Source of the DNA: Raja brachyura
Taxonomy: Eukaryota
Assembly: GCA_963514005.1 (NCBI GenBank)
Contig: OY740789.1
Location: forward strand, 21,948,001-22,012,000
Reading direction: 5' to 3'
Length of the DNA: 64,000 nucleotides
Part shown: in pieces, positions 2,181 through 54,897 of the stretch
Layout of the letters: every line of letters begins with the position of its first letter
How positions within the stretch are numbered: position 1 is the stretch's first letter
Notes under the pieces: model-generated
Databases searched by the model: none
Told to the model about the DNA's origin: nothing
The model's input: only the letters and a program-made list of their open reading frames with translations
Translations under genes and position numbers: made by a program

Positions 2181-2427
2181 CTCAAGTGTCAAGTCAAGAG
2201 TGGTTGTTTGTTATAAACACTGGGACCAGAACAATGAACTTCTTACTTGCTGCAGCTTTAGAGACACATTAAACACACCACCAAAAATAAGTATGTTTTA
2301 TTATGAGGAACCTGATAAGATTGGCATTTGGTATTGGTTTATTAGTGTTGTTGGGCTGTTATTGTCACTTGTTCTGAGCTAAAGTGGAAAACTTTGTTTA
2401 TGTGCAATACAGTAAAATCATGCTATA

Positions 2428-3278
2428 TGTTACGGGTCCCAAGGTTGGGCACCGTAAAGCAGATAGATAACCTGTATAAAAGCAGGTGTGAGAAGGCAAA
2501 TGAGGACACAGTGCATCTTAATTCATCCCCAGGTTGCTTCTGCTGGTTGTTTTATTCAATAATCATGTAAACACAAAACATTGCTCTTATCATTGGTTCA
2601 GTCATCCATTTTGTCTCTCCCTAACACACCCATTTTGTTACAGTTTCACTCACAGCCCATTCTTTCCTATGTTTCCCTTGTACTCAATACACTCTCTGTG
2701 CGATTTACACACTTGTATTTTTGATTTTACACTTCAATAAATATTATTAGGCACTTAATTAACCTTCACTGTACATTTCCAGCAACATGCTAAAAGTTGA
2801 CATTTGGCCTTTTTTTTCTATGCCATATCCTCATTGCAATGTCTGCAACCACTACAGGTTATGGAATGACCTAATAAGAAACATGCCCATGCTACACATT
2901 ATTATATCTTCCAACCCAGCACACAGAAACATTAACAACCAGTAACCCACTAACTTCAACTTTCTTAACACCCAAAACAACACAGAAACTTCACCCAACC
3001 ATATTCAAACCCCAAAAGTGCATATTTGTGTGGTCCTGACAGTCTACCAACCTGTATAAAAGCAGGTGTGAGAAGGCAAATGAGGACACAGTGCATCTTA
3101 ATTCATCCCCAGGTTGCTTCTGCTGAGATGGGGGGGGGGGGGAGTCCCTTGCTGTTTCCAGTCCCCGCAGCAACTGGAGTAACACAGAGGTTCCCCCTCA
3201 CTGCTGCACCTTATAAACTGCCAATACACCATCACATAAATTGAATCAATGTGGGCACACCGTCTTAGATGCGCCACA
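2428..3278 (-). repeat. 3' LTR (851 bp)
   Basis: Direct repeat of 9917-10766. By eye it differs only in a G-run (13 vs 12). Confidence 0.97.
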
Positions 3279-3289
3279 CGCTCCCCAAC
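3279..3289 (-). other. Polypurine tract candidate
   Basis: GTTGGGGAGCG on the minus strand directly abutting the 3' LTR. Confidence 0.65.
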
Positions 3290-3444
3290 AACAAAAGTGG
3301 CTCCTGACACTTATTTCAAATCGCAAGTGTCCATTGAAAATAATCAACAATCTTTCACAGACTCAAAAATATTTACAATATTCAAAATCTTCAACTATAA
3401 AAAAATATATGACTCTAGTTTGATTACATCACCACTGTTCATTC

Positions 3445-6400
3445 TCAATAACCCTGTACCGTACATGGCAAGTATGAATATTGGACCATGGGTGCACACT
3501 GGAATGATGGCCTGTACAGTGGGTGAGTATAGGGCATGAGGTACGTGCCAATAGTGTTCACAGCAGGAAATGGTTGATAGGTCGGATGACCAAGAGATGA
3601 GTAGGTGAGCCTTTGGACTGGCCGTCTTTCCCTTGTGGACCGTCTCACTGTAACAGGGGATCCAGGTTCAGAAGGTGAGAGAGAGTGATGCTCGAGATCT
3701 GCAACAATCTTCTCATCTTGTTCAGTGTCATGGGGAATGTCCTGATCATCCTCCTGTTGTGGTTCGCCTTCATCTGTTGAGTGTCTTTTCCATTGATCCT
3801 GTGGCTGTATTTCAGCTTCTGGTGGCCTCAAGTCCATTTCAGGTGATATTTGGACCACCATCCGTTCTTGACTTCTTTCATGTTTTCCGACTGATATGAA
3901 TGAATCTTTATCCCTTTGTCGGGTCACTCGAGTGGGTGTTCTTTGTGCTTGCTCATGTTGGATTCTGGCAGGTTTACTAGGAGTCTGAGCCGGCATTCTC
4001 TCAGGCGTAGCTGCTGTCCTTGGCTCAGCCCGACTTAGGGGTATCCTCAACCAATAACCTCCTCCTGACTCATCATCCGAGTCAGATGTCTCTGCATTCT
4101 CGGTTCTGTCTCTTATGTCACTCCTTCTCAGCTGAGGTTTCCTTTTCGTCTGTGGCTTTGAAGTTGGTTTGGTCTGCTGCGATGGGAATTCCACTGGTAA
4201 ATCATTGACCAGTAAAAGCAGGTTTCTATGCAGCGTCCTCAGTCTCCCTTTGCCATCGTTTTCTGGATGAATAACATACACTGGGTTGTCTGAGACTTGC
4301 TCTTTCACTACATATATCCTCTTTTCCCAGTAGGAACGTAGTTTCCCAGGCCCACCTCGCTCTCCCAGATTTCTAACCAACACTCTATCCCCAGGCTTCA
4401 GGACCACTCCTCTCACCTTCTGATCATAGTAGGACTTTCCTTTTGCACTTGAAGCCAGACTGTTGTTGTTAGCAATGCGGTATGCTTCCGCCATCCTTTT
4501 TTGCCACTTCTCAGCATAACCTTTGTGCGTCACTGGATCTATTTCTTCAGCCAACCCAAACAAGAGATCCACAGGAAGGCGAGGGTGTCGACCATAGAGA
4601 AGATAGTGAGGGGAATAGCCAGTGGACTCATGGCGTGTGCAGTTATACGCATGTACAACCTGTGGGAGATGTTCTTTCCATATCTCCTTTTCTATGTCTG
4701 TCAGAGTTCGCAGCATCTGCAGCAAGGTTCGATTGAATCGCTCTGCTGGATTACTTTGCGGGTGATATGGAGATGTTCGGGAATGTCCTACTCCAGAGAG
4801 CTGGCCAAGGGTTCGAAACAGTTCATTCTCGAATTCACGTCCTTGGTCATGATGGAGCTTGTTTGGGAATCCGAAACGTGGTACAAAGTCATTGTAAATC
4901 CGTTCTGCTGCCGTCCGGCCAGACTTGTTTCTTGTAGGGTAGGCCTGAGCAAACCTTGTAAAATGGTCAATTACTACTAGGATGTACTCATAACCGCCTT
5001 TGCTCTTTTTCAGGTGTAAGAAGTCGATACAAACCATTTCTAGGGGTGAGTTAGACTTCAGACCGCTCATTGGTGCACGCACATGCACTGTAGGCTTCTT
5101 CTGTTTGATGCAACTGCACTTCTTTGTTACATAGTCCTCGACACACCTTTTCATGTAGGGCCAGTAAAACCTCTCCCTGGCGAGGTGAAGAACTCTCTCC
5201 ATGCCCACATGTCCCATGTTGTCGTGGAGGTGCTTTAATACCACAGGGTGGTATTTCAGAGGTAGTACTAATTGTTTCCTACTTGTTGTTCTTCGGTACA
5301 GCAACCCATCCTCGATGTGCAACCTGCTCCACTCATGCAGAAGCTTGCATGCGCTTCCTCTCACAGTCCTTCTGATGTCGTCTGTCAATTTACTGTTCAT
5401 CTCTTTGAGCTTTAAGATCTTTCCTATCTCGGGATCCTCTCTTTGAGCTTGGACCAAGTCGTCATGACTAATGCTGTGTAGAGGGGCGCGGGGCTGTAGG
5501 ACAACATCTTGAGAGGAGACAGCGAGAGCGGCTATCCATGCCACATCTTTCCTCTGGGCTGCTTGACTTCCTTCCCAAGCTGCATTCACTACATCCTGCG
5601 ACAACTCCTCTGTGCATGTTGACATGTACTGGTCAATATCAAGAGGGACTCGGGACAGAGTATCTGCGTCCGTGTTGACTCTTCCTGGTCTGTACCTGAT
5701 GTCAAAATGGAAGTCTGACAGTTCTCCCACCCACCGGTGACCAACCGCATTGAGCTTGGCAGTGCTCATGATGTAAGTAAGTGGGTTGTTGTCAGTGAAG
5801 ATGGTAAAGTGTGGAGCATAATAGAGGTAGTCCCTAAATTTCTCGCACACTGCCCACTTAAGTGCAAGGAACTCCAACTTGCCACTATGCATATGGTAGT
5901 TCCTCTCTGCAGCTGTCAAAGTCCGTGACTCACACCCAATGACTCGTAGCTTTCCCTCCTGTTGCTGGTAGAGAACAGCTCCTAGACCTTGCTCTGATGC
6001 ATCGGTATGCAAGACGAAAGGCCTGTCGAAGTTTGGGTATGCCAAAACCGGTGGATGTGTCAACGTGTCAATCAGTCTCTCGAGTACACTTTGATGTTCA
6101 GCAGTCCACTGTATGGGTGCCCTGGATGACAGTTGGGGTCCCTTGGCTTTACCTTGTCGCGACTGGACTTGAATTGAGGATTTCCCTTGGAGCATCTCAT
6201 ACAATGGCTTTGCTATCTTTGAGAAGTTTTGAACGTATGTCCTGTAGTAACTGAGAAAACCGAGAACCCTTCTCAAATCACCTACCGTCTGTGGTGTTTT
6301 GTCTTTCAAAGCCAGCACAGCATTCAGGTCCTTGGGATCAACTCGAATACCGTTAGCAGAGACAAGGCGGCCAACATAGCGAACCTCTTGCTTGAACAAC

Positions 6401-8181
6401 TCACACTTTTCAGATCGGAGCTTTACCCCTTGATGTTGCAAAGCTTGGAGAACCCTGCGGACCACTTCCACATGATCTTCAAATGACCGCGAGTAGCAGA
6501 GGATGTCATCGAGGTAGGGTATACAGCACTCATCCCTCAGCGAACTCAACATCTCCTCCATACTTCTCTGGAATGCTGCTGGCGCATTTGATAGGCCAAA
6601 CGGGATCCTTACCCACTCATAAAACCCCCAGGGTGTGATGAAAGCAGTGAGATGACGTGAACTTTCAGCCACGAAACCCTGGTGGTAGGCCTTACCCTGG
6701 TCAAGGATGCTAAACCACGAGTAACCACCCAAGGTGTCCAGCAAGTCTCGTATTCGAGGCAGTGGGTGTCTATCCGGCACCGTTTTCTGATTCAATAGAC
6801 GATAATCTATGCAGAGGCGCAGCGTACCGTCTTTCTTCCGCACACACACAACTGGAGCGGCATAGGAGGACCTAGATTTCACAATCCATCCCTTGACAAG
6901 GAGGTCTTGAACATATTCCTTTACTTCTCTCAACAGCGGTTTTGGGATGGATGTGTACGCTCTCTGCACAGGAATGTCATCTTTCAGATTTATCACCATT
7001 TGCAGGCTTGGGTTGCATCCAATATCATTTTCATCTCTGGCAAAGGCTTTTGACTCCTCAAATAACATTTTCCTGACAACCTCTTGCTGATTTTCCTCCA
7101 GGTGATCAAGGTTCACGAGCGGATGCCACAGTGATGGAGTTGGTTGATGAAGTTGAGAGGTGACCTCGTTGACTGTTGTCATGGATGCCACTTTTCTTGG
7201 AGGGTCAGCTTCCACAACCCTTTCAATATGCTGTAAGGTGCCCAGGGCTGTCTTACGTGGCAAGATAATGTCATGGCTGGTGTTGTTGCCAACAGCAATG
7301 GTGACATACGGTTTTAAAGGATTCTGCATTTCAACCAAACCTGTTCCTAGATCTAGCTGATCCAAAGGCTGACTGCCTTCGTCTGATTCGAACAATACCA
7401 GACGGCCATAGGAGTTCATGGTTGGGGGAACCCGGCATCTCACCCAGCTGACTTGTCCAGCTGGAACGACCACGTCCTTTGCACCAGTTCTTAGGCATCC
7501 TTGTGGCATACTTGGCTCCACTGTCTGAATAAAACTCACCACTGCTTCGGCTTTCTCACTTGAAACACCAATGGCATTCTGAAACAACTGTATCAGAGTA
7601 GGTACTAACCTTTCTGGCTGTCCCTCAACAAGCTGCTCAAGAACATTAAAACCAATCAACGGTCTTTCCATGGTCAAGCTGCTAACTAAGAATGGGACAC
7701 TGATGGCAAGACTTGGGTCCTCATTCCCAGGTAGGTTGGTCATTATAGGAATCCATCCATCAAAAGGAATGAGCTCTCCATTGACTGCATAAACCTTTAG
7801 CTCATCCAGTTCCTCAATGATCTCAGACATTGGTCGAATGTTTAGATCAGGCAGGTGTAGATCTTTCCAGGCACGGCTGATAATACTAACTTGTGCGCCC
7901 GAGTCAAGCCATGCAGTTACCGCCAAACCACTTAGATTACATTGTATCAGAGCCTTCTTTCCTATCATGTTGGCGGCAGCTTTACGTTTGGTACATTGTG
8001 GTTCAAAAGAGAACTGAGAAGATGATTTGCTTTGTTTGTCATTGTACTGTGTGCTCGCTACTTCTGAAGTGGCGGACAAAGGAAGATCTGTATTGTTGTC
8101 ATCACAATCAGTTTGAGTTTGGGGACGTTTCTCAGATCCGATCACTGGGCGCCCCCCTGCAGCGACCGGTGCAAGTTTCCC
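3445..8181 (-). CDS. pol: Gypsy Pol (aspartic protease, RT, RNase H, integrase), entered by -1 frameshift
   Basis: 1599-aa open frame with DSGA protease motif, RLCIDYR/PFGL/YLDD RT motifs, TDAS...ELFLALKWA-type RNase H, HHCC zinc finger, D-D-E integrase (IDF, HHDQG, PAER) and a long low-complexity C-terminal tail. Confidence 0.96.
8121..8181 (-). other. -1 programmed ribosomal frameshift signal (slippery site plus H-type pseudoknot)
   Basis: G GGA AAC in the gag frame (8181-8175), 5-nt spacer, 10-bp stem CCGGUCGCUG/CAGUGAUCGG, loop GGGGGCG pairing with downstream CGUCCCC. pol is in the -1 frame. Confidence 0.85.
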
Positions 8182-9734
8182 TGACTCTTCTGTTTCTTTA
8201 AGCAGCCAACAGCTCTGTGGCCTTCCTCCCCACACGAGAAACAATGGTTACAGTCTGGGCAGTTTTGTTCAACACATTTTGGACAACCGTATGATTTATC
8301 TCTCCTGGGTCTCATTTTATTTTGAGAATATTGGTTCCTCACATCTGTTGGTTGTGGCTTAATTTGTCGTTTCATGGCCTCAATCATACTTGTGAGCTCA
8401 TCTACCTTGGCTGTAAGCTCTTTAATTGGGTCTGTCTTTACTTTTGGCGCCACACTCTCTTGCTTGCTACCCTGCTCTTTTGCTGTATTCGGCTCAAACT
8501 GTGCACCATGTGCATGAACTGCAGCCTGCCGACGAAAAGGACCTATCCTCTTTTGTCTCTCACTTTCTTCACTGGTGATTTTCATTACCTGGCGCAATAT
8601 TGTCTCATCACTTACTTCACCACTGGACAAGAGAGGTTTTATTTCTCTGCGTAGCTCACTATGTTTGTAGCCCAATCCCTGGTAAACTGTATGTAGGAAG
8701 CCATCTTGAACAGTGGCTGCACTGTATTTTATACCTGCGTCTGACAGTTTTGATGTGAATAGGACACGTTGCTTCAAACCTATGACACGATAGAGGAATT
8801 GTTGTGGTGTCTCGTTCTCCTCCTGCTTGGCACATATTAACTCTTGAAATAACTCTGCACTGCTTTTTTCTCTTAGGTGAGCCTGGAGAAATCCCTTGAG
8901 TTCCATCACAGTCAAGTCATCCTTGTTCATTAGCATCTCTTTAAAAATTCCAGGTTTCATTATCCGGAGCACACCACGAACTATCTCTGCATCATGGAAG
9001 CCTTCTTTGATCCCTTCTTCTATTTGCTTACAGACATTGCTATAACTGATGTCTGACGAATGATCACCAACCTGGCCCCCTTGTACCTTAAACTCCCTTC
9101 TCTGGAGATAGGCGAGATCTCTTATGGAAATCATCCCCTCTCGATTGGGTTGAACAACTGTCGGGTTGTGGTATGATGAGTCACTTCGAGACTTATTAGC
9201 CTGTGCTGCTACTGGCGGACAGTCTTCTGGTGACTGAGTTGTCGGTACCATAATGCTTTGTTTCAGCCTTTTACCAAGCTCCTCATAGCTAGTGAGCATT
9301 TCGAGTAACTCTACGTTTGTGGAGTCAGATACAGCAGTAGGTAGTACTGGGTCAGTGGTGAAAGCATCACTGTTTGGCAAAGTAGAACTGACTTGGAACA
9401 TTTGGTTAGTAGTATCTCCATGAGCACCTATGGGTTGTGTTTCTAGCTCTGGCAAACACAATACTTTTCGGGTCTTTACAATATCATCAATAGCATCTTT
9501 CAAACCCAACAATTCAGACATTCCACTGTCTTCTGACTCTAACAAATGCTTACTGTACATGAATGAACTGATTTTGTCGAAGCAGCCTTCATGGTCTCCT
9601 TCATGGAGTTCAGACAGGTCCCAATCTGACGTTGAACCCATCTCTTTGGCGATGTGACAAAGCTCTGCAGCTGACAAGGTGAGCAGTGACTTCCGAATGT
9701 CCCACACTAGGCTCTTCCTCCCACTCTCTGACAT
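8142..9734 (-). CDS. gag: Gypsy Gag (530 aa)
   Basis: ATG-initiated ORF downstream of the PBS with [10 protein letters not shown] major-homology-like motif and C-terminal CX2CX4HX4C knuckle ([14 protein letters not shown]) preceded by extra CxxC pairs. Confidence 0.95.
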
Positions 9735-9893
9735 GGCAGCAGCGTTTCACCGTCCTTCACGATGGATCACAGTTCAGCAATGGCACAGTCTCTGCTCCGA
9801 CTCACCGCTCTCGGCACTCAGCTCGAATGAGCCCTGTCTCGGTCTCAGGTGTCATTAGTTGATCAGCTCCACTCCAACCACGAAGTGGCGCCG

Positions 9894-9911
9894 ACCCCGG
9901 ACGAGCCCCCA
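9894..9911 (-). other. Primer binding site, tRNA-Pro
   Basis: TGGGGGCTCGTCCGGGGT, 17/18 match to the canonical Pro PBS TGGGGGCTCGTCCGGGAT, 5 nt inside the 5' LTR. Confidence 0.9.
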
Positions 9912-9916
9912 CGATC

Positions 9917-10766
9917 TGTTACGGGTCCCAAGGTTGGGCACCGTAAAGCAGATAGATAACCTGTATAAAAGCAGGTGTGAGAAGGCAAATGAGGACACAG
10001 TGCATCTTAATTCATCCCCAGGTTGCTTCTGCTGGTTGTTTTATTCAATAATCATGTAAACACAAAACATTGCTCTTATCATTGGTTCAGTCATCCATTT
10101 TGTCTCTCCCTAACACACCCATTTTGTTACAGTTTCACTCACAGCCCATTCTTTCCTATGTTTCCCTTGTACTCAATACACTCTCTGTGCGATTTACACA
10201 CTTGTATTTTTGATTTTACACTTCAATAAATATTATTAGGCACTTAATTAACCTTCACTGTACATTTCCAGCAACATGCTAAAAGTTGACATTTGGCCTT
10301 TTTTTTCTATGCCATATCCTCATTGCAATGTCTGCAACCACTACAGGTTATGGAATGACCTAATAAGAAACATGCCCATGCTACACATTATTATATCTTC
10401 CAACCCAGCACACAGAAACATTAACAACCAGTAACCCACTAACTTCAACTTTCTTAACACCCAAAACAACACAGAAACTTCACCCAACCATATTCAAACC
10501 CCAAAAGTGCATATTTGTGTGGTCCTGACAGTCTACCAACCTGTATAAAAGCAGGTGTGAGAAGGCAAATGAGGACACAGTGCATCTTAATTCATCCCCA
10601 GGTTGCTTCTGCTGAGATGGGGGGGGGGGGAGTCCCTTGCTGTTTCCAGTCCCCGCAGCAACTGGAGTAACACAGAGGTTCCCCCTCACTGCTGCACCTT
10701 ATAAACTGCCAATACACCATCACATAAATTGAATCAATGTGGGCACACCGTCTTAGATGCGCCACA
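9917..10766 (-). repeat. 5' LTR (850 bp)
   Basis: Direct repeat of 2428-3278, adjacent to the PBS. Confidence 0.97.
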
Positions 10767-11760: not shown

Positions 11761-12836
11761 TAGAGGTATCCATATGATGGTAGCCAGTGATCAAACGGGA
11801 GGGATAAGATGAGTGTTAACACTCAAGGAGAGAGTAATGCACAAAACAACCCACATTGTAGAATGTGAGGTCTTTTGCTTTTAATAACATCTCATAAGTG
11901 ATTGGAACAGAATTAGGCCATTCAGCCCATCAAGTCTACTCCACCATTCAATCTTTTAAAAATAGACGTGGAATCAAACGCAGAAAGAAATAATATTATA
12001 TTAAGGTGATCACGATTACATATATTGGGGAAACACTGTGTATATGTTGTGTAAAATAGATTTAATTACACAAAGGAACAAGTGCAAGTTAAACAAAATT
12101 AATATGTTGTTCTGAGTTGTGAAATTTATCTCTGTGAAACTCTCCATCTTCTCTCCTGCACCTTTCCTCTGTGTTACCTGATCCTGCCTATCTTTTATTT
12201 AAATTGACATCTGCTGTGCTCATCCTTCTGAGCTGTGGAGGCCATGGGTTCGGGAAGCTTTTAATATGCTGTTGCACTGATGAATCCTAAATAGCATTTC
12301 TGTGTTAATTAGTGTTATAAACAGCCGCGGATCTGACTTTCCAGTGACACCTTGCTGAGCATATGACAAAGTCATTGGGTAATTAGTTGTAGCTGCTTCA
12401 CGTGCATTTTGAAATAAACTAAAGTTAGCAAATCAGTGACACCTAACATTCTTGCCTTGGTTCTGGCTAGTATCTTTATTCTTAGTTATATATTGCTGCT
12501 GCACAGGGAGCAATGCAGATAGACAAATGCAAGCTGTCCTGTTATTTTTGGCGTATTGGAGATGCTATATCAATACAATCTTTTGTTATTGTTATTTATT
12601 GGGATGCACTTAGGAAAACAATTCCTCACAAGCACGTATACGTGCAGGAGAGGACTGCAGATGCTGGTTTACACTGAAGATAGGCACAAAATGCTGGAGT
12701 AACTCAGTGGGATAGAAGGAAAAGGTAATGTTTCAGGTCAAGACCCCTTTTCAGACTGTCTATGTGATTTTTATTAATTCGTCCATTCAACGGGTGTTTC
12801 CTTTGCAGGCTGAACTACATTTAATTGTCTATCCCT

Positions 12837-12973
12837 TCTTTTTCTTTTGTGTGGCGTGCACAGCCTAAAGTTTTTGGACAACTCGTTCTATTTGATCTTC
12901 TGTTTGTGCACGTCGAGTTGATTGCATTAGTCGAAACAGGGCGGACCACGTGAAGGTTGCAATCTTCCACCCC
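12837..12973 (-). mobile_element. ~137-nt retroelement with 5' HDV-like ribozyme and GAA-rich tail, copy 1
   Basis: Near-identical to 36632-36766. TSD TGTCTATCCC(T) at 12826-12836 and 12974-12984. Confidence 0.9.
12920..12973 (-). ncRNA. Minimal HDV/CPEB3-like self-cleaving ribozyme (predicted)
   Basis: P1 GGGGUGG/CCGCCCU (G1-U wobble), P2 GAUUGCA/UGCAAUC, P3 ACC/GGU, L3 UUCACGU, J1/4 GU, short UUCGA in place of P4, J4/2 CUAA. Confidence 0.8.
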
Positions 12974-13689
12974 TGTCTATCCCTGATGGTTCTTGAGAAG
13001 GTGACAGTGAGCTGCCATCTTGGACCACTGGAGTCCATGAGGTGTAAGTGCATTCCTGGATTTTGGCCCAAGGCCCAGTGACAGTGAAGGAACGGCGAGT
13101 TAGTTGTAACTCAGGAAGGTATACGGCTTGATGGACAATTTCCAGGTGATGCTGTTTCCATATGTTTGCTGCTCTTGTCCTTCTAGCTGCTAGAGGTCAT
13201 TGGTTTAGAAGTGTCAGTTGTCTTGATGAGTTACTGCAGTGCATCCTGCAGATGGTTTAAACTGCTGCTATGGTGCATCGGTGGTGACGGGAGTGAATGG
13301 TTGTGGAATGGCTGTTTGCCAAATGGGCTGCTCTTTGCTTCGGGGTGTTGAGCTTCTTGAGTGGTTTTAAGTTCCATTCATCCAGGTAAGTGTAGAGTAT
13401 TCCATTGCATTCCTGATTTAAGCCTTGTAAATTGGGGACAGGCTCTGGGACGATTTACGAGGTGGCTTTCCCACCATAATATTCCTAGCCATTCCCTTGC
13501 TCTCGCAGCCACTTTTGTGTATATGGATACTCCGGTTCAGTTTCAGGCTGCAGAGCCCTATTCACCCGTGTCCTTCCTTAAGCTCCGGATTACTGTGAAA
13601 AGGGTAACCCACCTCCTGAAACTTCCCTGAGTTTCTCGCTCCCAATTCAGATAATTGTAGGATTAAGTGTCGCATCAATGAGGCGAATG

Positions 13690-36248: not shown

Positions 36249-36631
36249 TAATTTCTTTTTCGTCATGTATTTACTCAATTCGCTTACAAAATAATATTTT
36301 TTAATCTTTAATCACCACTCCAAATTCTAACCGCCAGTTGCTTGTGTTAACTTTGGCCAGTCACCTGAAATGGGTTCCTGCTGATTATCATCCTTAAGCA
36401 ATTAGAAATAAGTCCTTCAAGAGTTAACTGTGTCTGTTTGTCATATGGACTGGAACAAATAACTTCTTATATGCTGCTGCTTTACAACCACATGTAAGAA
36501 GTTAATTGTTATGGTTCATATCTGATGCGTATGGAAAACTAGGTATGATATATGAAACTTATACAAAGACATGGAATTGTAGTGAAGACCTTTACACGAT
36601 TGAAGATAAATACTGTGATATGCACAGGCTA

Positions 36632-36685
36632 GGGGTGGAAGATTGCAACCTTCACGTGGTCCGCCCTGTTTTGACTAATGCAATC
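36632..36685 (+). ncRNA. Minimal HDV/CPEB3-like ribozyme (predicted)
   Basis: Identical to 12920-12973 except one change in the P4-replacing loop (UUUGA). Confidence 0.8.
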
Positions 36686-36766
36686 AATTCGACGTGCACA
36701 CACAGAAGATCAAATAGAACAAGTTGTCCTACAACTTTAGGCTGTGCATGCCACACGAAAGAAGAA
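36632..36766 (+). mobile_element. ~135-nt retroelement with 5' HDV-like ribozyme and GAA tail, copy 2
   Basis: TSD GCACAGGCTA at 36622-36631 and 36767-36776; tail GAAAGAAGAA. Confidence 0.9.
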
Positions 36767-37326
36767 GCACAGGCTACAGAATTATTCCAATTATAAATGA
36801 CTTTTAGATAAATAGCTGCACTGATAACAAATAATTTAATAGTAAACAATAATTACCTGAAAGCTATTGTTATCATGAAATTAACTGACATTTGAATAAA
36901 AACATTTTGTGATATGTCAAAAAGGTTTGCATGTGTGAAAGATCTCATGTGCACACAATAGCCTGGAGTGATGTATTCCAGAACCTTCAAACTTAGCCAG
37001 CATGGAATAACACATCAGAAATAGGTTCCAGATACAATGGAATGATTTGCAGTAGATGCTTGGGAAGATAGTTTCCACAGCACAGATTCTCTTAACTGTC
37101 TACCATATTGTAGACAGAGGATTGTCAGATGTTCTGAAGAAATGTCATATAGCCTTTCATTTTAGTGGTTTGCATTACTTTTCTGGGTTACAAGCAAAGC
37201 ATGGGAATTCAGGGCATTCAGTTCCACCTTGTCAGGTAGTGCGAGTTTGCAATTTTAAAAAAAAACAGAACTTCATTTTCTAAATACTTAAGGTTAAAAT
37301 TGAAATTTGTGAAACATTCATATTAC

Positions 37327-47704: not shown

Positions 47705-48100
47705 TCTATATAAATAAAAGTCTAATCTTGACCACTTCCTGTTTGTGTTGTATATTGATTTTGGAAAAAAGGCTACCACTTACGCCTGTGATTTTTGGCC
47801 ATCTAACTCATAGTCCCCCTCCGCTCATCAAGTGCAGAGGATTTTTCTCATCGATGAAAAATAAAAGAGTTATTAGTGTTTAAAAAATGTTGAAATTCTC
47901 TCTCCTGTCAATCACTGCCATGAATGCCATGCCCCTTCTAGGGGTGGGGGGAGGAGCTATAAAACCCAGAAGTCTGAACGAGGCTTTGTTGCTGCAAGAT
48001 GGCGAGTGAGAGGTCACGATTCTCAGTCTGAGCTGTGAATTTACAGAACACTGAACTTACAGAATTTACTGAACTGTGAGTGCCCTTTATGTGTTTATAA
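47705..48100 (+). mobile_element. Helitron-like 5' terminal segment (non-autonomous)
   Basis: A|TCTATATAAATAAAAG start typical of Helitron 5' ends, running directly into a tandem array. No 3' hairpin-CTAG found. Confidence 0.55.
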
Positions 48101-51100
48101 ACTGTGCCTTTTGCAATGTGTGCCTTTTGCAATGTGTGCCTTTTGCAATGTGTGGCCATTGAAACTGTGTGGCCATGGAAACTGTGTGGCCATGGAAACC
48201 GTGTGGCCATGGAAACCGTGTGGCCATGGAAACTGTGTGGCCATGGAAACCGTGTGGCTATTCAAATGTGTGGCTATTCAAACGTGCAGCTATTGCAACG
48301 GTGCGGCTATTGCAACGTGCGGCTATTGCAGCTGTGCGGCTATTGCAACTGTGTGGCTATTGAAACGGTGTGCCTTTTGAAACTGTGTGCCTTTTGCAAC
48401 TGTGCCTTTTGCAACTGTGCGGCCATGGAAACTGTGTGGCCATGGAAACTGTGCGGCCATGGAAACCGTGCGGCCATGGAAACCGTGCGGCCATGGAATC
48501 CATGTGGCCATGGAAACCGTGTGGCTATTCAAACGTGTGGCTATTGCAACGTGCGGCTATTGCAACGTGCGGCTATTGCAACATGCGGCTATTGCAACTG
48601 TGCGGCTATTGCAACTGTGCGGCTATCGCAACTGTGCGGCTAACGCAACTGTGCGGCTATCGAAACTGTGCGGCTATCGAAACTGTGCGGCTATCGAAAC
48701 TGTGCGGCTATCGAAACTGTGCGGCTATCGAAACTGCAGTTATTAAAATCTGTGCCTTTTACAACTGTGCCTTTTGCAACTGTGCCTATTGCAATGTGTA
48801 GCTATTGCAATTGTGTGGCTATTGAAATTGTGCGGCAATTGAAACTGTGTGGCTATTGCAACTGTGTGGCTATTACAACTTTGTGGCTATTGCAACTGTG
48901 CCTTTTACAACTGTGCCTATTGAAATGTGTGGCTATTGCAACTGTGTGGCTAATGCAACTGTGCCTTTTGCAACTGTGCATTTTGCAGCTGTGCATATTG
49001 AAATGTGTGGCTATTGCAACTTTGTGGCTATTGCAACTGTGTGGCTATTAAAATGTGTGCCTTTTGCAACTGTGCCTATTGAAATGTGTAGTCATTGAAA
49101 TTGTGTGGCTATTGAAACTGTGGCTATTGAAACTGTGTGGCTACTGCAACTGTGTGGCTACTGCAACTGTGTGGCTACTGCAACTGTGTGGCTACTGCAA
49201 CTGTGTGGCTACTGCAACTGTGTGGCTACTGCAACTGTGTGGCTGTTGCAACTGTGTGGCTGTTGCAACTGTGTGGCTGTTGCAACTGTGTGGCTGTTGC
49301 AACTGTGTGGCTGTTGCAACTGTGTGGCTGTTGCAAATGTGTGCCTTTTGCAACTGTGCCTTTTGCAACTGTGCCTTTTGCAATGTGTGACTATTGAAAT
49401 AACCATATCACCATATAACCATATAACAATTACAGCACGGAAACAGGCCTTCTCGGCCCTTCCAGTCTGTGCCAATCGTTTATTTTCCCCTAGTCCCATC
49501 TACCTGCACTCAGACCATACCCCTCCATTCCCTTCCCATCCATATACCTATCCACTTTACTTTTAAATGTTAAAATTGAACCTGCCTCCACCACTTCTGC
49601 AGGAAGATCATTCCACACAGCCACCACTCTCTGAGTAAAGAATGTGTGGATATTGCAATTGTGCGGCTATTGAAATTGTATGGCTATTAAAGATGTGTGG
49701 CTATTGAAATTGTGCGGCTATTGAAATTGTGTGGCTATTGAAACAGTGTGCCTTTTGCAATGTGTGCTTATTGAAACGTGTGGCTATTGAAACGTGTGGC
49801 TTTTGAAACGTGTGACAATAGAAATGTGTGGCTATTGAAATGTGTGGCTATTGCAACTGTGTGGCTATTGCAACTGTGTGGCTATTGCAAATCTGTCCCT
49901 TTTGCAACTGTGTGCCTTTTGCAACTGTGCCTTTTGCAACTGTGCGGCTATTGAAACTGTGTGGTTATTGCAACTGTGTGGTTATTGCAACTGTGCGGCT
50001 ATTGCAACTGTGCGGCTATTGAAATCTGTGCCTTTTGCAACTGTGCCTTTTGCAACTGTGCCTATTGAAATGTGTGCCTATTGAAATGTGTGACTATTGA
50101 AACTGTGTGGTATTGAAACTGTGCGGCTATTAAAATGTGTTCCTTTTGCAACTGTGCAGGTATTGCAAATGTGCGGCTATTGCAACTTTGCGGCTATTGC
50201 AACTGTGCGGCTATTGCAACTGTGCGGCTATTGCAACTGTGCCTTTTGAAACTGTACCTATTCAAATGAGTGGATATTGCAACTGTGTGGATATTGCAAT
50301 TGTGTGGCTATTGCAACTGTGTGGCTTTTGCAACTGTGCAGATAGTGCAACTGCGGATATTGCAACTCTGCGGCTATTGCAACTGTGCGGCTATTGCTAT
50401 TGTGCGGCTATTGCTTCTGTGGGGCTATTGCTCCTGTGCGGATATTGGTACTGTGCGGCTATTGCTATTGTGCGGCTATTGCTTCTGTGGGGCTATTGCT
50501 TCTGTGCGGCTATTGCTCCTGTGCGGATATTGGTACTGTGCGGCTATTGCTACTGTGTGGCTTTTGAAAGTTTGCGACTATTGAAAGTGTGCAGCTATTA
50601 TATTTGTGCTTTTTGCAACTGTGCCTATTGAAATGTGTGGCTATTGAAATGTGTGGCTATTGAAATTATGTGGCTATTGCAACTGTGTGCCTATTGCAAC
50701 TGTGTGGCTATTGCAACTGTGTGGCTATTGCAACTGTGTGGCTATTGCAACTGTGTGGCTATTGCAACTGTGCCTTTTGCAACTGTGCCTTTTGCAACTG
50801 TGCCTTTTGCAACTGTGCCCTTTGCAACTGTGCCCTTTGCAACTGTGCCTATTGAAATGTGTGGATATTGCAACTGTGTGGATATTGCTACAGTGCAGAT
50901 ATTCCTACTGTGCGGATATTGCTACTGTGTGGCTATTGCTACTGTGCAGCTATTGTTACTGTGCGGATATTGAAAGTGTGCGGCTATTGAAAGTGTTCGG
51001 CTATTTAAAGTTTGCGGCTATTGAAAGTGTGCGGCTATTGAAAGTGTGCGGCTATTGAAAGTGTGCGGCTATTGAAACAGAGTGCCTTTTGCAACTGTGT

Positions 51101-54100
51101 CTTTTGAAATTGTGCCTATTGAAATGTGTGGCTATTGAAATTATGTGGCTATTGAAATTGTGTGGCTATTGAAACTGTGTGGCTATTAAAATGTGTGCCT
51201 TTTGCACTGAGCCTTTTGCAATGTGTGGCTATTGAAACATATGGCTATTGAAACGTTTGGCTATTGAAATGTGTGGCTATTGCAACTGTGTGGCTATTGC
51301 AACTGTGCGGCTATTGCAACTGTGCGGCTATTGCTACTGTGCGGCTATTGCAAGTGTGCAGCTATTATATTTGTGCCTTTTGCAACTGTGCCTTTTGCAA
51401 CTGTGCGTATTGAAAAGTGTGGCTATTTAAATTGTGTGGCTATTGAAACTGTGGCTATTAAAATGTGTGCCTTTTGCACTGAGCCTTTTGCAATGTGTGG
51501 CTATTGAAACGTGTGGCTATTGAAACGTGGCTATTGCAACTGTGTGGCTATTGCAACTGTGTGGCTATTGAAACTGTGTGGCTATTGAAACTGTGCGGAT
51601 ATTGAAACTGTGCGGTTAATGAAATCTGTGCCTTAAGCAACTGTGCCTTTTGCACTGAGCCTTTTGCAATGTGTGGCTATTGAAACGTGTGGCTATTGAA
51701 ATTGTCTGGCTATTGAAATTGTGTGGCTACTGTGTGGCTATTGAAATCTGGGCCTTTTGCAACTGCTCCTATTGAGCCACTGTGTGGCTCTTGCAACTGT
51801 GTGGCTCTTGCAACTGTGTGGCTCTTGCAACTGTGCCTATTGAAATTTGTGGCTATTTAAATGTGTGGCTATGGCATTTGTGTGGCTATTGAAAATGTGT
51901 GGCTATTGAAATAGTGTGGCTGTTAAAATTGTGTGGCTGTTGAAATTGTGTGGCAATTGAAATTGTGTGGCGATTGAAATTGTGTGGCTATTGAAGCTGT
52001 GGCTATTAAAATGTGTGCCTTTTGCACTGAGCCTTTTGCAATGTGTGGCTGTTGAAACGTGTGGCTATAGAAACGTGTGGCTTTTGAAACGGGTGGCTAT
52101 AGCAACGGTGTGGCTATTGCAACTGTGCGGCTATTGCAACTGTGCGGCTATTGCAACTGTGCGGCTATTGCAACTGTGCGGCTATTGCAACCGTGCGGCT
52201 ATTGAAACTGTGCGGCTATTGAAACTGGGGCTATTAAAATGTGTGCCTTTTGTAACTGTGCCTTTTGCAATGTATGCCTTCTGCAATGTTAGGTTATTGG
52301 AACATGTGGCTATTGAAACATGTGGCTTTTGAAATGTGTGGCTATTGAAACGTGTGGCTATTGAAACATGTGGCTATTGAAACGTGTGGCTATTGCAACA
52401 ATGTGCCTTTTGCAACTGTGCCTATTTAAATGTGTGGCTATTGAAATGTGTGGCTATTGAAATGTGTGGCTATTGAAATGTGTGGCTATTATAATGTGTG
52501 CCTTTTACAACTGTGCCTATTGAATTGTGTAGCTGTTGCAATTGTGTGCCTATTGCAACGGTGTGGCTATTGCAACTCTGTGCCTTTTGCAACTGTGCCT
52601 TTTGCAACTGTATGGATATTGCAACTGTGTGGCTATTTTAACTGTGTGGCTATTGCACCTGTGTGGCTATTAAAATGTGTGCCTTTTGCAACTGTGCAGC
52701 TATTGCAACTGTGCGACTATTGCAACAGTGCAGCTATTGCAACTGTGTGGCTATTAAAATGTGTGCCTTTTGCAACTGTGCCTTTTGCAATGTGTGCCTT
52801 TTGCAATGTGTGGCTATTGGAACGTGTGGCTATTGAAACGGGTGGCTTTTGAAACGGGTGGCTTTTGAAACACATTGCAGTAGCCACACATTAGCAATAG
52901 CCACAGTTGCAAAAGGCACAGTTGCAAAAGGCACACATTTCAATAGGCACAGTGCAAAAGGCACACATTTCTATTGCCACACAGTTGCAAGAGCCACACA
53001 GTTGCAATATCCACTCATTCGAATAGGCACAGTTTCAAAAGGCACAGTTGCAATAGCCGCACAGTTGCAATAGCCACACGTTGCAAAAGGCACACGTTGC
53101 AAAAGGCACACGTTGCAAAAGGCACACGTTGCAAAAGGCACACATTGCAAAAGGCACAGATTTCAATAGCTGCACAGTTTCAATAGCCGCACAGGCTAAT
53201 GCAACTGTGCGGCTATTGCAACTGGGTGGCTATTGAATCTGTACGGCTATTGAAATCTGTGCCTTTTGCAACTGTGCCTTTTGCAACTGCACCTATTGAA
53301 ATGTGTGGCTATTGAAACTGTGTGGATATTGAAACTGTGCGGCTATTGCAACTGTGTGCGGCTATTGCAACTGTGTGCGGCTATTGAAACTGTGTGCGGC
53401 TATTGAAACTGTGGCTATTGCAACTGTGTGGCTATTGCAACTGGGCGGCTATTGAAACTTTACGGCTATTGAAATCTGTGCCTTTTGCAACTGTGCCTTT
53501 TGTAACTGTGCCTTTTCAAACTGTGCCTATTCAAATGAGTGGATATTGCAACTGTGTGGATATTGCAACTGTGTCGCTATTGCAACTGTGGCTATTAAAA
53601 TGTGTGCCTTTTGCAACTGTGCGGCTATTGCTACTGTGTGGCTATTAAAAGTGTGTGGCTATTGCAATTGTAGCTATCGAAACTGTGTGGCTATTAAAAT
53701 GTGTGCCTTTTGCAACTATGCCTATTGAGTGTGTAGCTATTGTAATTGTATGTCTATTGCAACTGTGTGGCTATTGCAACTGTGCCTTTTGCAACTGTGC
53801 CTATTGCAACTGTGTGGCTATATTAACTGGGTGGCTATTGCAACTGTGTGGCTATTAAAATGTGTGCCTTTTGCAACTGTGCAGCTATTGCAACTGTGAG
53901 GCTATTGCAACTGCGTGGCTATTAAAATATGTGCCTTTTGCAACTGTGCCTTTTGCAATGTGTGCCTTTTGCAATGTGTAGCTATTGAAATGTGCGGCTA
54001 TTGCAACTGTGCGGCTATTGAAATGTGTGGCTATTGAAATGTGTGGCTATTGAAATGTGTGGCTTTTGAAATTGTGTGGCGATTGAAACTGTGTGGCTAT

Positions 54101-54897
54101 CGAAACTGTGGCTATCGAAACTGTGTGGCTATCGAAACTGTGTGGCTATCGAAACTGTGTGGCTATTAAAATGTGTGCCTTTTGCAACTGTGCCTATTGA
54201 AATGTGCAGATATTGCAACTGTGTGGCTATTGCAACTGTGTGGCTATTAAAATGTGTGCCTTTTGCAACTGTGCGGCTATTGCAACTGTGCGGCTATTGC
54301 TACTGTGCGGATATTGAAACTTGTGTTGATATTGAAACTGTGCGGCTATTGAAAGTGTGTGGCTATTAAAATGTGTGCCTTTTGCAACTTGTCCTTTTGC
54401 AATGTGTGGCAATTGAAATGTGTGGCTATTGAAACATGTGGCTATTGAAACGTGTGACTATTGAAACGTGTGGCTATTGAAATTGTGTGGCTATTGAAAT
54501 TGTGTGGCTATTGAAATTGTGTGGCTATTGAAACTTGTGGCTATTGAAACTTGTGGCTATTGAAACTGTGTGGCTATTGCAACTGTGTGGTTATTGCAAC
54601 TGTGTGGCTATTACAACTGTGTGGCTATTGCAAATGTGCGGCTATTGCAAATGTGCGGCTATTGAAATGTGCGGCTATTGAAATGTGCGGTGATTGAAAT
54701 GTGCGGTGATTGCAACTGTGCGGCGATTGTAACTGTGCGGCGATTGCAACTGTGCGGCGATTGCAACTGTGTGGCTATTGCAACTGTGCCTTTTGAAATG
54801 TGTAGCTATTGCAATTGTGTGGCTATTGAAATGTGTGGCTATAGAAACTGTGCTGCTATTGCAACTGTGCGGCTATTGCAACTGTGCGGCTATTGTG
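48100..54897 (+). repeat. 6.8-kb complex minisatellite (15-17-bp units GCAACTGTGTGGCTATT / GAAATGTGTGGCTATT / GCAACTGTGCCTTTT)
   Basis: Directly visible tandem periodicity with locally homogenised variant blocks. Confidence 0.97.
49400..49641 (-). mobile_element. CR1-type 3' end inserted in the minisatellite
   Basis: (AACCATAT)n tail, GGAAACAGGCC...CATTCCACACAGCCACCACTCTCTG. Confidence 0.8.

Follow-up and report, generated by a model that had tools for sequence, protein, structure and literature searches.

The 64,000-nucleotide stretch of the Raja brachyura genome analysed here (the window) contains two copies of a 136-nt repeated element, and the question is where such an element comes from and how it multiplies. 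The initial annotation described a promoter-less SINE which begins with a minimal, P4-less HDV-like ribozyme and is mobilised by a LINE. Both copies, the target-site duplications (TSDs) that each copy has of its own and the 54-nt fold are present as described, see Table 1. The copies are 93% identical over 137 nt, and in the first 54 nt there is indeed a single mismatch, at position 41 (counted from G1) in the 5-nt loop. In both copies the base just before G1 is the last base of the upstream TSD. At the site orthologous to copy A, one contig of run X3 reads through with no element in it, which confirms the insertion and the TSD of copy A. The run data are assembled contigs, and the RNA nature of the runs is a guess.

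Table 1. Features of the two element copies in the window; ribozyme parts are those of the predicted fold.
Feature	Position	Strand	Basis
Target-site duplication, 5' copy, copy A, 10 bp, abuts G1	36622..36631	+	Empty orthologous site with one TSD copy in run X3
Predicted P4-less HDV-like ribozyme fold, copy A	36632..36685	+	Descriptor, Rfam match; same head on parent LINE
P1, copy A ribozyme, G1-U wobble	36632-38/36661-67	+	
J1/2, copy A ribozyme	36639-40	+	
P2, copy A ribozyme	36641-47/36679-85	+	
P3, copy A ribozyme	36648-50/36658-60	+	
L3, copy A ribozyme	36651-57	+	
J1/4, copy A ribozyme	36668-69	+	
5-nt loop in place of P4, copy A ribozyme	36670-74	+	
J4/2, copy A ribozyme, predicted catalytic C = C36675	36675-78	+	
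Remainder of the LINE 5' UTR-derived piece, element positions 55 to ~78	36686..36709	+	Comparison with LINE
Junction filler, ~13 nt, in part repeating the bases before it; boundaries approximate	36710..36723	+	Read from alignments
LINE 3'-end-derived piece: final ORF codons and stop, short 3' UTR, GAA-repeat tail	36724..36766	+	Comparison with LINE
Target-site duplication, 3' copy, copy A, 10 bp	36767..36776	+	
Copy B of the element; predicted ribozyme fold 12920-12973, G1 = 12973	12837..12973	-	
Target-site duplication, 5' copy, copy B, 11 bp	12974..12984	-	
Target-site duplication, 3' copy, copy B, 11 bp	12826..12836	-	

A descriptor of the nested double pseudoknot (G1, a 7-bp P1, a P2 of at least 6 bp, a 3-bp P3, L3, J1/4 and C-N-R-A) matches the window at G1=36632 and G1=12973 only, and has 0 matches in 300 dinucleotide shuffles. 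In both copies P1, P2, P3 and P1.1 follow each other as in HDV-like ribozymes, and the HDV-like core is present, i.e., the G1 pair, U20/G25 and the catalytic C heading J4/2, then N-R-A. The putative P1.1 consists only of C22-G37 plus a U-U. The Rfam scan of the whole window gives no HDV-type match, while the scan of 36600-36720 gives one match among 4227 families, HDV-F-prausnitzii (RF02682), which covers exactly 36632-36685 with a weak score (16.2 bits, E 0.39, below the cut-off of 44). The CPEB3 model has no match at E up to 10, in the window or in 36600-36720; the element is without P4. ViennaRNA gives a z of about 0 for the head, with a program that cannot form pseudoknots. Based on the descriptor, together with the compensatory changes and the lack of subfamily variants at constrained positions described below, the HDV-like ribozyme fold of the head is supported, as initially claimed, and self-cleavage is predicted.

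The element is abundant genome-wide. An exact 17-mer of its tail occurs 13,394 times in the 2.7-Gb genome, and a control 0 times. This count takes in LINE tails (6 of 89 sampled) and leaves out mutated copies, so the genome is taken to contain at least ~12,000 short elements. Two element copies were also present in 413 kb of loci retrieved on other grounds. At least nine coded organisms have runs holding half or more of the sampled words.

The 5' boundary was examined in a tail-selected sample, which was not chosen on the 5' end. Of the first 100 tail matches listed for contig 1, the sample takes in 89; 11 members of a 12-member close-set cluster at 14.8-14.95 Mb were left out. The element alignment begins at G1 in 58 of the 89 loci, at position 3 or before in 67 and at position 8 or before in 71. 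A TSD is detectable in 55 of these 71; in 28 it reaches exactly to G1, and in 42 its end is no more than 1 nt away, while a control with mismatched flanks gives any TSD in 9/71 and offset 0 in 0/71. The TSDs are mostly 11-14 bp long. In run X3, 400 contigs turn into unrelated flanks just ahead of G1, and another 72 do so one base earlier. The loci, the abutting TSDs and these contigs place the 5' end of the element at G1, as proposed initially.

The base preceding G1 is a pyrimidine in 42 of the 58 copies (T in 30, C in 12), which probably reflects a target preference.

The parent of the element is a LINE. Six of the 89 tail-selected loci (L297, L302, L308, L328, L333, L350) run upstream into the end of an ORF with a CCHC-like motif. 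A search with the RT region of this LINE gave 108 candidates, of which 40 were scored and 30 retrieved, and in a near-full copy (L374) element positions 9-73 (90.8%) stand at the start and positions 98-135 close the copy, with a distance of 3.05 kb. The LINE-specific 5' UTR, used as query in turn, has 39 matches; 23 of the 30 retrieved loci carry the element head, which starts at G1 in 4, at position 2 in 3, at positions 3-16 in 14 and at position 39 in 2. Upstream of G1 the loci have no visible sequence in common. The element thus has both ends in common with one autonomous-type LINE, with the middle deleted, and its TSDs, simple-repeat tail and empty site are those of an independently amplified unit. 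It is the first ~78 and the last ~45 nt of the LINE joined together, i.e., an internal-deletion (bipartite) derivative and not a separately built SINE. Of the initial proposal, the dependence on a Vingi/Ingi-type LINE sharing both termini is supported, with the LINE found as decayed copies, but the supposed SINE is an internally deleted LINE which inherited its predicted ribozyme. L278 looks like another junction. A descriptor-perfect P4-less ribozyme is present on L420, itself a ~500-nt bipartite deletion, and since the P4-less form is already on the parent LINE, P4 was lost before the short element arose.

A 1019-aa protein which contains APE and RT and lacks RNase H aligns colinearly with the LINE. 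There are 618 relatives; most of the 120 that are listed have APE and RT in ~1000 aa and lie on contigs of ~3.2 kb. RNase H (PF00075) is listed for none of these 120, two chimeric gene models among them carry LTR-type RNase H-like domains, and no named Vingi or Ingi reference is among them. Vingi is described as having a compact single ORF with APE and RT and no RNase H (PMC13708176). The parent fits a decayed 3.1-kb single-ORF Vingi-like LINE, an assignment made by architecture. All translated copies are broken, the 40 scored candidates of 108 match the query at 83-89% (the query itself aside), and no intact driver was seen.

Two other families were tried as partner and rejected. The top endonuclease family (30 of 150 retrieved) is a young two-ORF LINE without the element head, and the L134 family has other stems, another tail and 32-46% protein identity to the true parent. 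Patterns with an exclusion did not find the parent with 30 loci retrieved for each, either for the middle motif with the head excluded (33 matches), for the tail with upstream excluded (41 matches) or for the head with downstream excluded (273 matches). Such misses do not count against the parent, because it lacks that motif and, for the other two patterns, itself has the positions that were excluded.

A few observations concern LINEs and junctions more generally. L121-L126 are a young two-ORF I/Nimb-like LINE with copies 97-98% alike, a GAA-rich tail and no match to the element head. A very high share of the LINE loci with a 5' UTR (13/30, L399-L428) is 5'-inverted. In the element, an 8-10-bp stem (window 36691-36700 with 36743-36752) links the 5'-derived to the 3'-derived part, and two older-subfamily variants each add one pair. 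Pairing between the 5' UTR and the 3' end of LINEs reaches a nominal p of about 0.01 in 5 of 9 tests, with 4-12% of other windows pairing too, and is a weak lead.

The origin of the head largely refutes one alternative, namely that the element is a usual SINE transcribed by RNA polymerase III, whose tRNA-like head has degenerated and whose fold is incidental. A B-box-like stretch at positions 37-47 has 7 of 10 consensus letters, while the stretch that best matches an A box is found further downstream, at position 108. The 64-kb window contains no tRNA gene, the fold never appeared in the shuffles, and the head comes from the 5' end of the LINE itself, in keeping with the initial statement that a tRNA-like head is absent. 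We give this alternative next to no credence.

A second old Vingi-like LINE family (5,313 first-look candidates, thousands of decayed copies) provides an independent view of the fold. Of its 40 retrieved copies 38 are 5'-truncated; the head starts at its own G1 in L134 (2058-5203) and L191, and a few bases inside in L178. Its predicted ribozyme shares P3 with the element, is nearly identical to it in L3, and has C-A-G-A and a P4 region of 40 nt; the L134 head scores 15.1 bits against RF00094, below the cut-off of 50. Between the element and this family, both partners are replaced in 3 of the 7 pairs of P1 and in 3 of the 7 of P2, one pair is changed on one side and none is broken. Compensatory changes, whose absence the initial annotation took to speak against a ribozyme, are thus found in 6 of the 14 P1 and P2 pairs, with the covariation coming from two genomic lineages and pattern-selected metagenome cases. 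A MAFFT alignment of eight heads had P1 out of register, and pairs were not counted on it. Both LINE families, and the subfamily masters as well, retain the catalytic C, G1-U, U20/G25 and C-N-R-A.

Variation within the family was analysed in 68 near-full copies (3 of 71 were dropped as flank duplicates). The ribozyme is fully intact in 29 of them, and in 39 if one broken pair per stem is tolerated. Columns with at least 30% non-majority letters were taken as source-gene (subfamily) differences. Such columns are found at 0/44 paired or catalytic positions, at 2/10 free ribozyme positions, i.e., position 8 in J1/2 and the N of C-N-A-A, and at 9/58 positions of the 3' part; 0/44 against 11/68 gives a Fisher p=0.003, which is inflated by linked columns. 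Rare variants occur at similar rates at constrained positions (4.5%) and in the 3' part (5.0%), so the ribozymes of inserted copies decay neutrally. A younger subfamily contains 42 of the 68 copies (91% pairwise) and an older one 26 (87%). The LINE copies match the older subfamily, and the younger one looks younger than they are; no equally young driver was seen for it.

These patterns also bear on what the head does. Its main role could be that of an internal promoter from which RNA polymerase II starts at G1, like Pr77 in L1Tc, with cleavage secondary or joint. Such a start would give an equal 5' boundary, and in L1Tc of the sister Ingi clade 77 nt serve as promoter and ribozyme, so that the label promoter-less may not hold for the element with its equivalent head (PMC4035085). 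However, two LINE families keep the pairing and the catalytic positions while the stem letters differ, which suits an RNA fold better than a DNA motif, and the subfamily variants avoid paired positions. We consider a mainly promoter function improbable; the head may still have both roles.

More improbable still is that the pseudoknot is a non-cleaving or barely cleaving structure which serves to shield the 5' end or as a binding site for the LINE protein. The conservation of the catalytic C, together with G1-U, U20/G25 and C-N-R-A, argues against it, and protection alone would leave the boundary at G1 unexplained. It is true that P4 is absent and P1.1 weak, that human CPEB3 is slow (PMC13635239), and that R2-based templates are protected by an HDV-like fold much as by a cap (PMC13708176); P4-less minimal ribozymes nevertheless cleave in vitro (bioRxiv 10.1101/2023.06.13.544163).

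We prefer, and hold to be highly probable, that the element is made of the joined ends of the ~3.1-kb Vingi-like LINE, that its head likely self-cleaves 5' of G1, and that the LINE protein would recopy it in trans. A copy would be transcribed from an outside promoter, within a host transcript. The head would then fold and cut 5' of G1, with C44 as the general acid, which would free the element RNA from the host transcript with the whole ribozyme retained. The LINE protein may bind the shared 3' end and, acting in trans, carry out target-primed reverse transcription from a nick. Since the ribozyme stays complete on the RNA that is copied after cleavage, every full-length new copy would carry it again. 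Cleavage may be slow, since P1.1 has one C-G pair plus a U-U and P4 is absent. Counting against this explanation, the LINE copies are ragged at the 5' end and many are 5'-inverted.

RIME and NARTc are short derivatives of the trypanosome elements ingi and L1Tc. Together with SIDER they are known ribozyme-headed internal-deletion elements; like the element described here, they are dispersed, non-autonomous derivatives of an Ingi-group LINE, with both ends kept, TSDs and an HDV-like ribozyme placed at their extreme 5' end (PMC4035085). In contrast to RIME and NARTc, the parent here is without RNase H (Vingi-like), the host is an animal, and there are more than 10,000 copies. L1TcRz has 77 nt with P4, whereas the predicted ribozyme of the element has 54 nt without P4. 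The ribozyme-headed R2 SIDEs of Drosophila likewise combine a 5' ribozyme with a LINE 3' end (PMC3414825). They are rare and rDNA-specific, while the element is dispersed, with the TSDs given above, and has a parent with an APE endonuclease. Hammerhead or HDV-like ribozymes are used by some non-autonomous SINEs (PMC6765202), and the lamprey is a non-mammalian vertebrate with HDV-like ribozymes (PMC8256844).

Bipartite Vingi elements, e.g. derivatives of Vingi-1_EE, likewise arise by internal deletion from a compact LINE which has a single APE-RT ORF and lacks RNase H (PMC5786205, PMC13708176), but here two Vingi-like families carry a predicted ribozyme. Kojima 2018 lists Vingi among the clades that make bipartite elements and not among the ribozyme clades, while RTE, Ingi and R2 have both, and the link is posed as a question (PMC5786205). 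Minimal P4-less HDV-like forms are known from metagenomes and phages. Like the element, these minimal or theta ribozymes have no P4, a short J1/2 and the catalytic C first in J4/2; they occur in metagenomes and gut phages, often behind tRNAs, whereas the ribozyme of the element heads a retroelement. That search covered human, mouse and protist genomes, and the excerpt names no eukaryotic matches (bioRxiv 10.1101/2023.06.13.544163).

The mammalian CPEB3 ribozyme has a different P3. Common to both are the G1-U wobble, U20, C22, A23, G25, U26 and a one-pair P1.1 with a U-U (PMC4836649). The CPEB3 ribozyme has P4 and is single-copy and conserved, while that of the element is P4-less and multi-copy. 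The likeness to CPEB3 noted initially is not specific, as the P3/L3 core is also found in the F. prausnitzii consensus, in a tRNA-trailer ribozyme and in RTE-like elements. It shows no descent, because bacterial, phage-like and RTE-linked ribozymes have the same core.

With respect to the literature searched, a ribozyme on Vingi-like LINEs and a P4-less ribozyme at high copy number in an animal genome are new. In the excerpts of the full-text literature searched, neither a Vingi ribozyme nor this element is reported, those of PMC7761336 and PMC13635239 have nothing on the element, and Ruminski 2011, Kojima 2011, Webb 2009, supplements, Repbase, Dfam and patents may cover it.

Related cores were found in a metagenome scan with a degenerate ribozyme core, which gave 30 loci. 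A matching P1 within 70 nt is present in 8 of the 30, each with its own stem letters (two more, at 284 nt, are uncounted), and none has a Vingi-like ORF downstream. In L243 (1137-1176, minus strand), a tRNA-like sequence within a cluster of tRNAs is immediately followed by an HDV-like ribozyme, after which comes an HNH-like ORF; this ribozyme looks theta-like, yet has P4. L248 and L253 are heads of RTE-like LINEs with an HDV-like core, a long J1/2 and a short or absent P4, and L256 and L264 are RTE-like relatives with such heads, which have P2 but do not pass the P1 test. More HDV-like cores, without a tRNA or a downstream RT, lie on the metagenome contigs L241, L246, L247, L251, L268 and L269, and the J4/2 of L246 equals that of the element.

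Two Vingi-like families with ribozymes would close the Vingi gap in the link between ribozymes and bipartite elements. Here an animal genome holds a P4-less ribozyme in more than 10,000 copies, for which there are natural variants, insertions that are dated and a control with an empty site, so that fold tolerance and effects on host transcripts become testable. By extrapolation from 29/68, the genome would contain about 4,500 intact 54-nt ribozymes. It can be speculated, with more doubt than confidence, that the Vingi clade is ribozyme-headed and thereby all four clades that yield bipartite elements are, that several thousand intact 54-nt ribozymes cut host pre-mRNAs from sense introns and form a mass source of CPEB3-type intronic ribozymes, and that copies of 70-85 nt are the smallest such retroelements. 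Vingi-derived UTRs serve RNA-only gene-insertion platforms, and the eight mentions of ribozymes in the excerpted review all concern R2 systems (PMC13708176). A 54-nt 5' module with predicted self-cleavage and a ~45-nt 3' module would make a very small candidate template.

No host exon was found among the 37 of 92 window ORFs that were scanned. Elsewhere in the window, positions 2425-10213 (minus strand) hold an LTR retrotransposon with identical repeats of more than 300 nt and open frames of 534 and 1600 aa (RT, RNase H, integrase); since the repeats are identical and the frames open, this is a very recent insertion. A long 17-nt minisatellite array covers 48100-54700, with an inverted segment near 52.8-53.2 kb.

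Some minor variants of the element were also observed. Ultra-short copies of about 70-85 nt (L071, L084, L086) consist of the ribozyme and a ~20-nt tail; TSDs are visible for L071 and L084, and two of the ultra-short copies are deleted between the two GTGCAC motifs. Copies of a variant in which 2 nt are inserted near position 63 are clustered on contig C3 (L232-L240, 7 of 30 retrieved). Finally, run X13 on window 36560-36840 has a contig joint, at a depth of 254, from position 56 plus 12 further element bases to G1. It may represent a head-to-tail ~68-nt ribozyme unit, as tandem DNA, circular RNA or an assembly artefact, in a run which is only guessed to be RNA.
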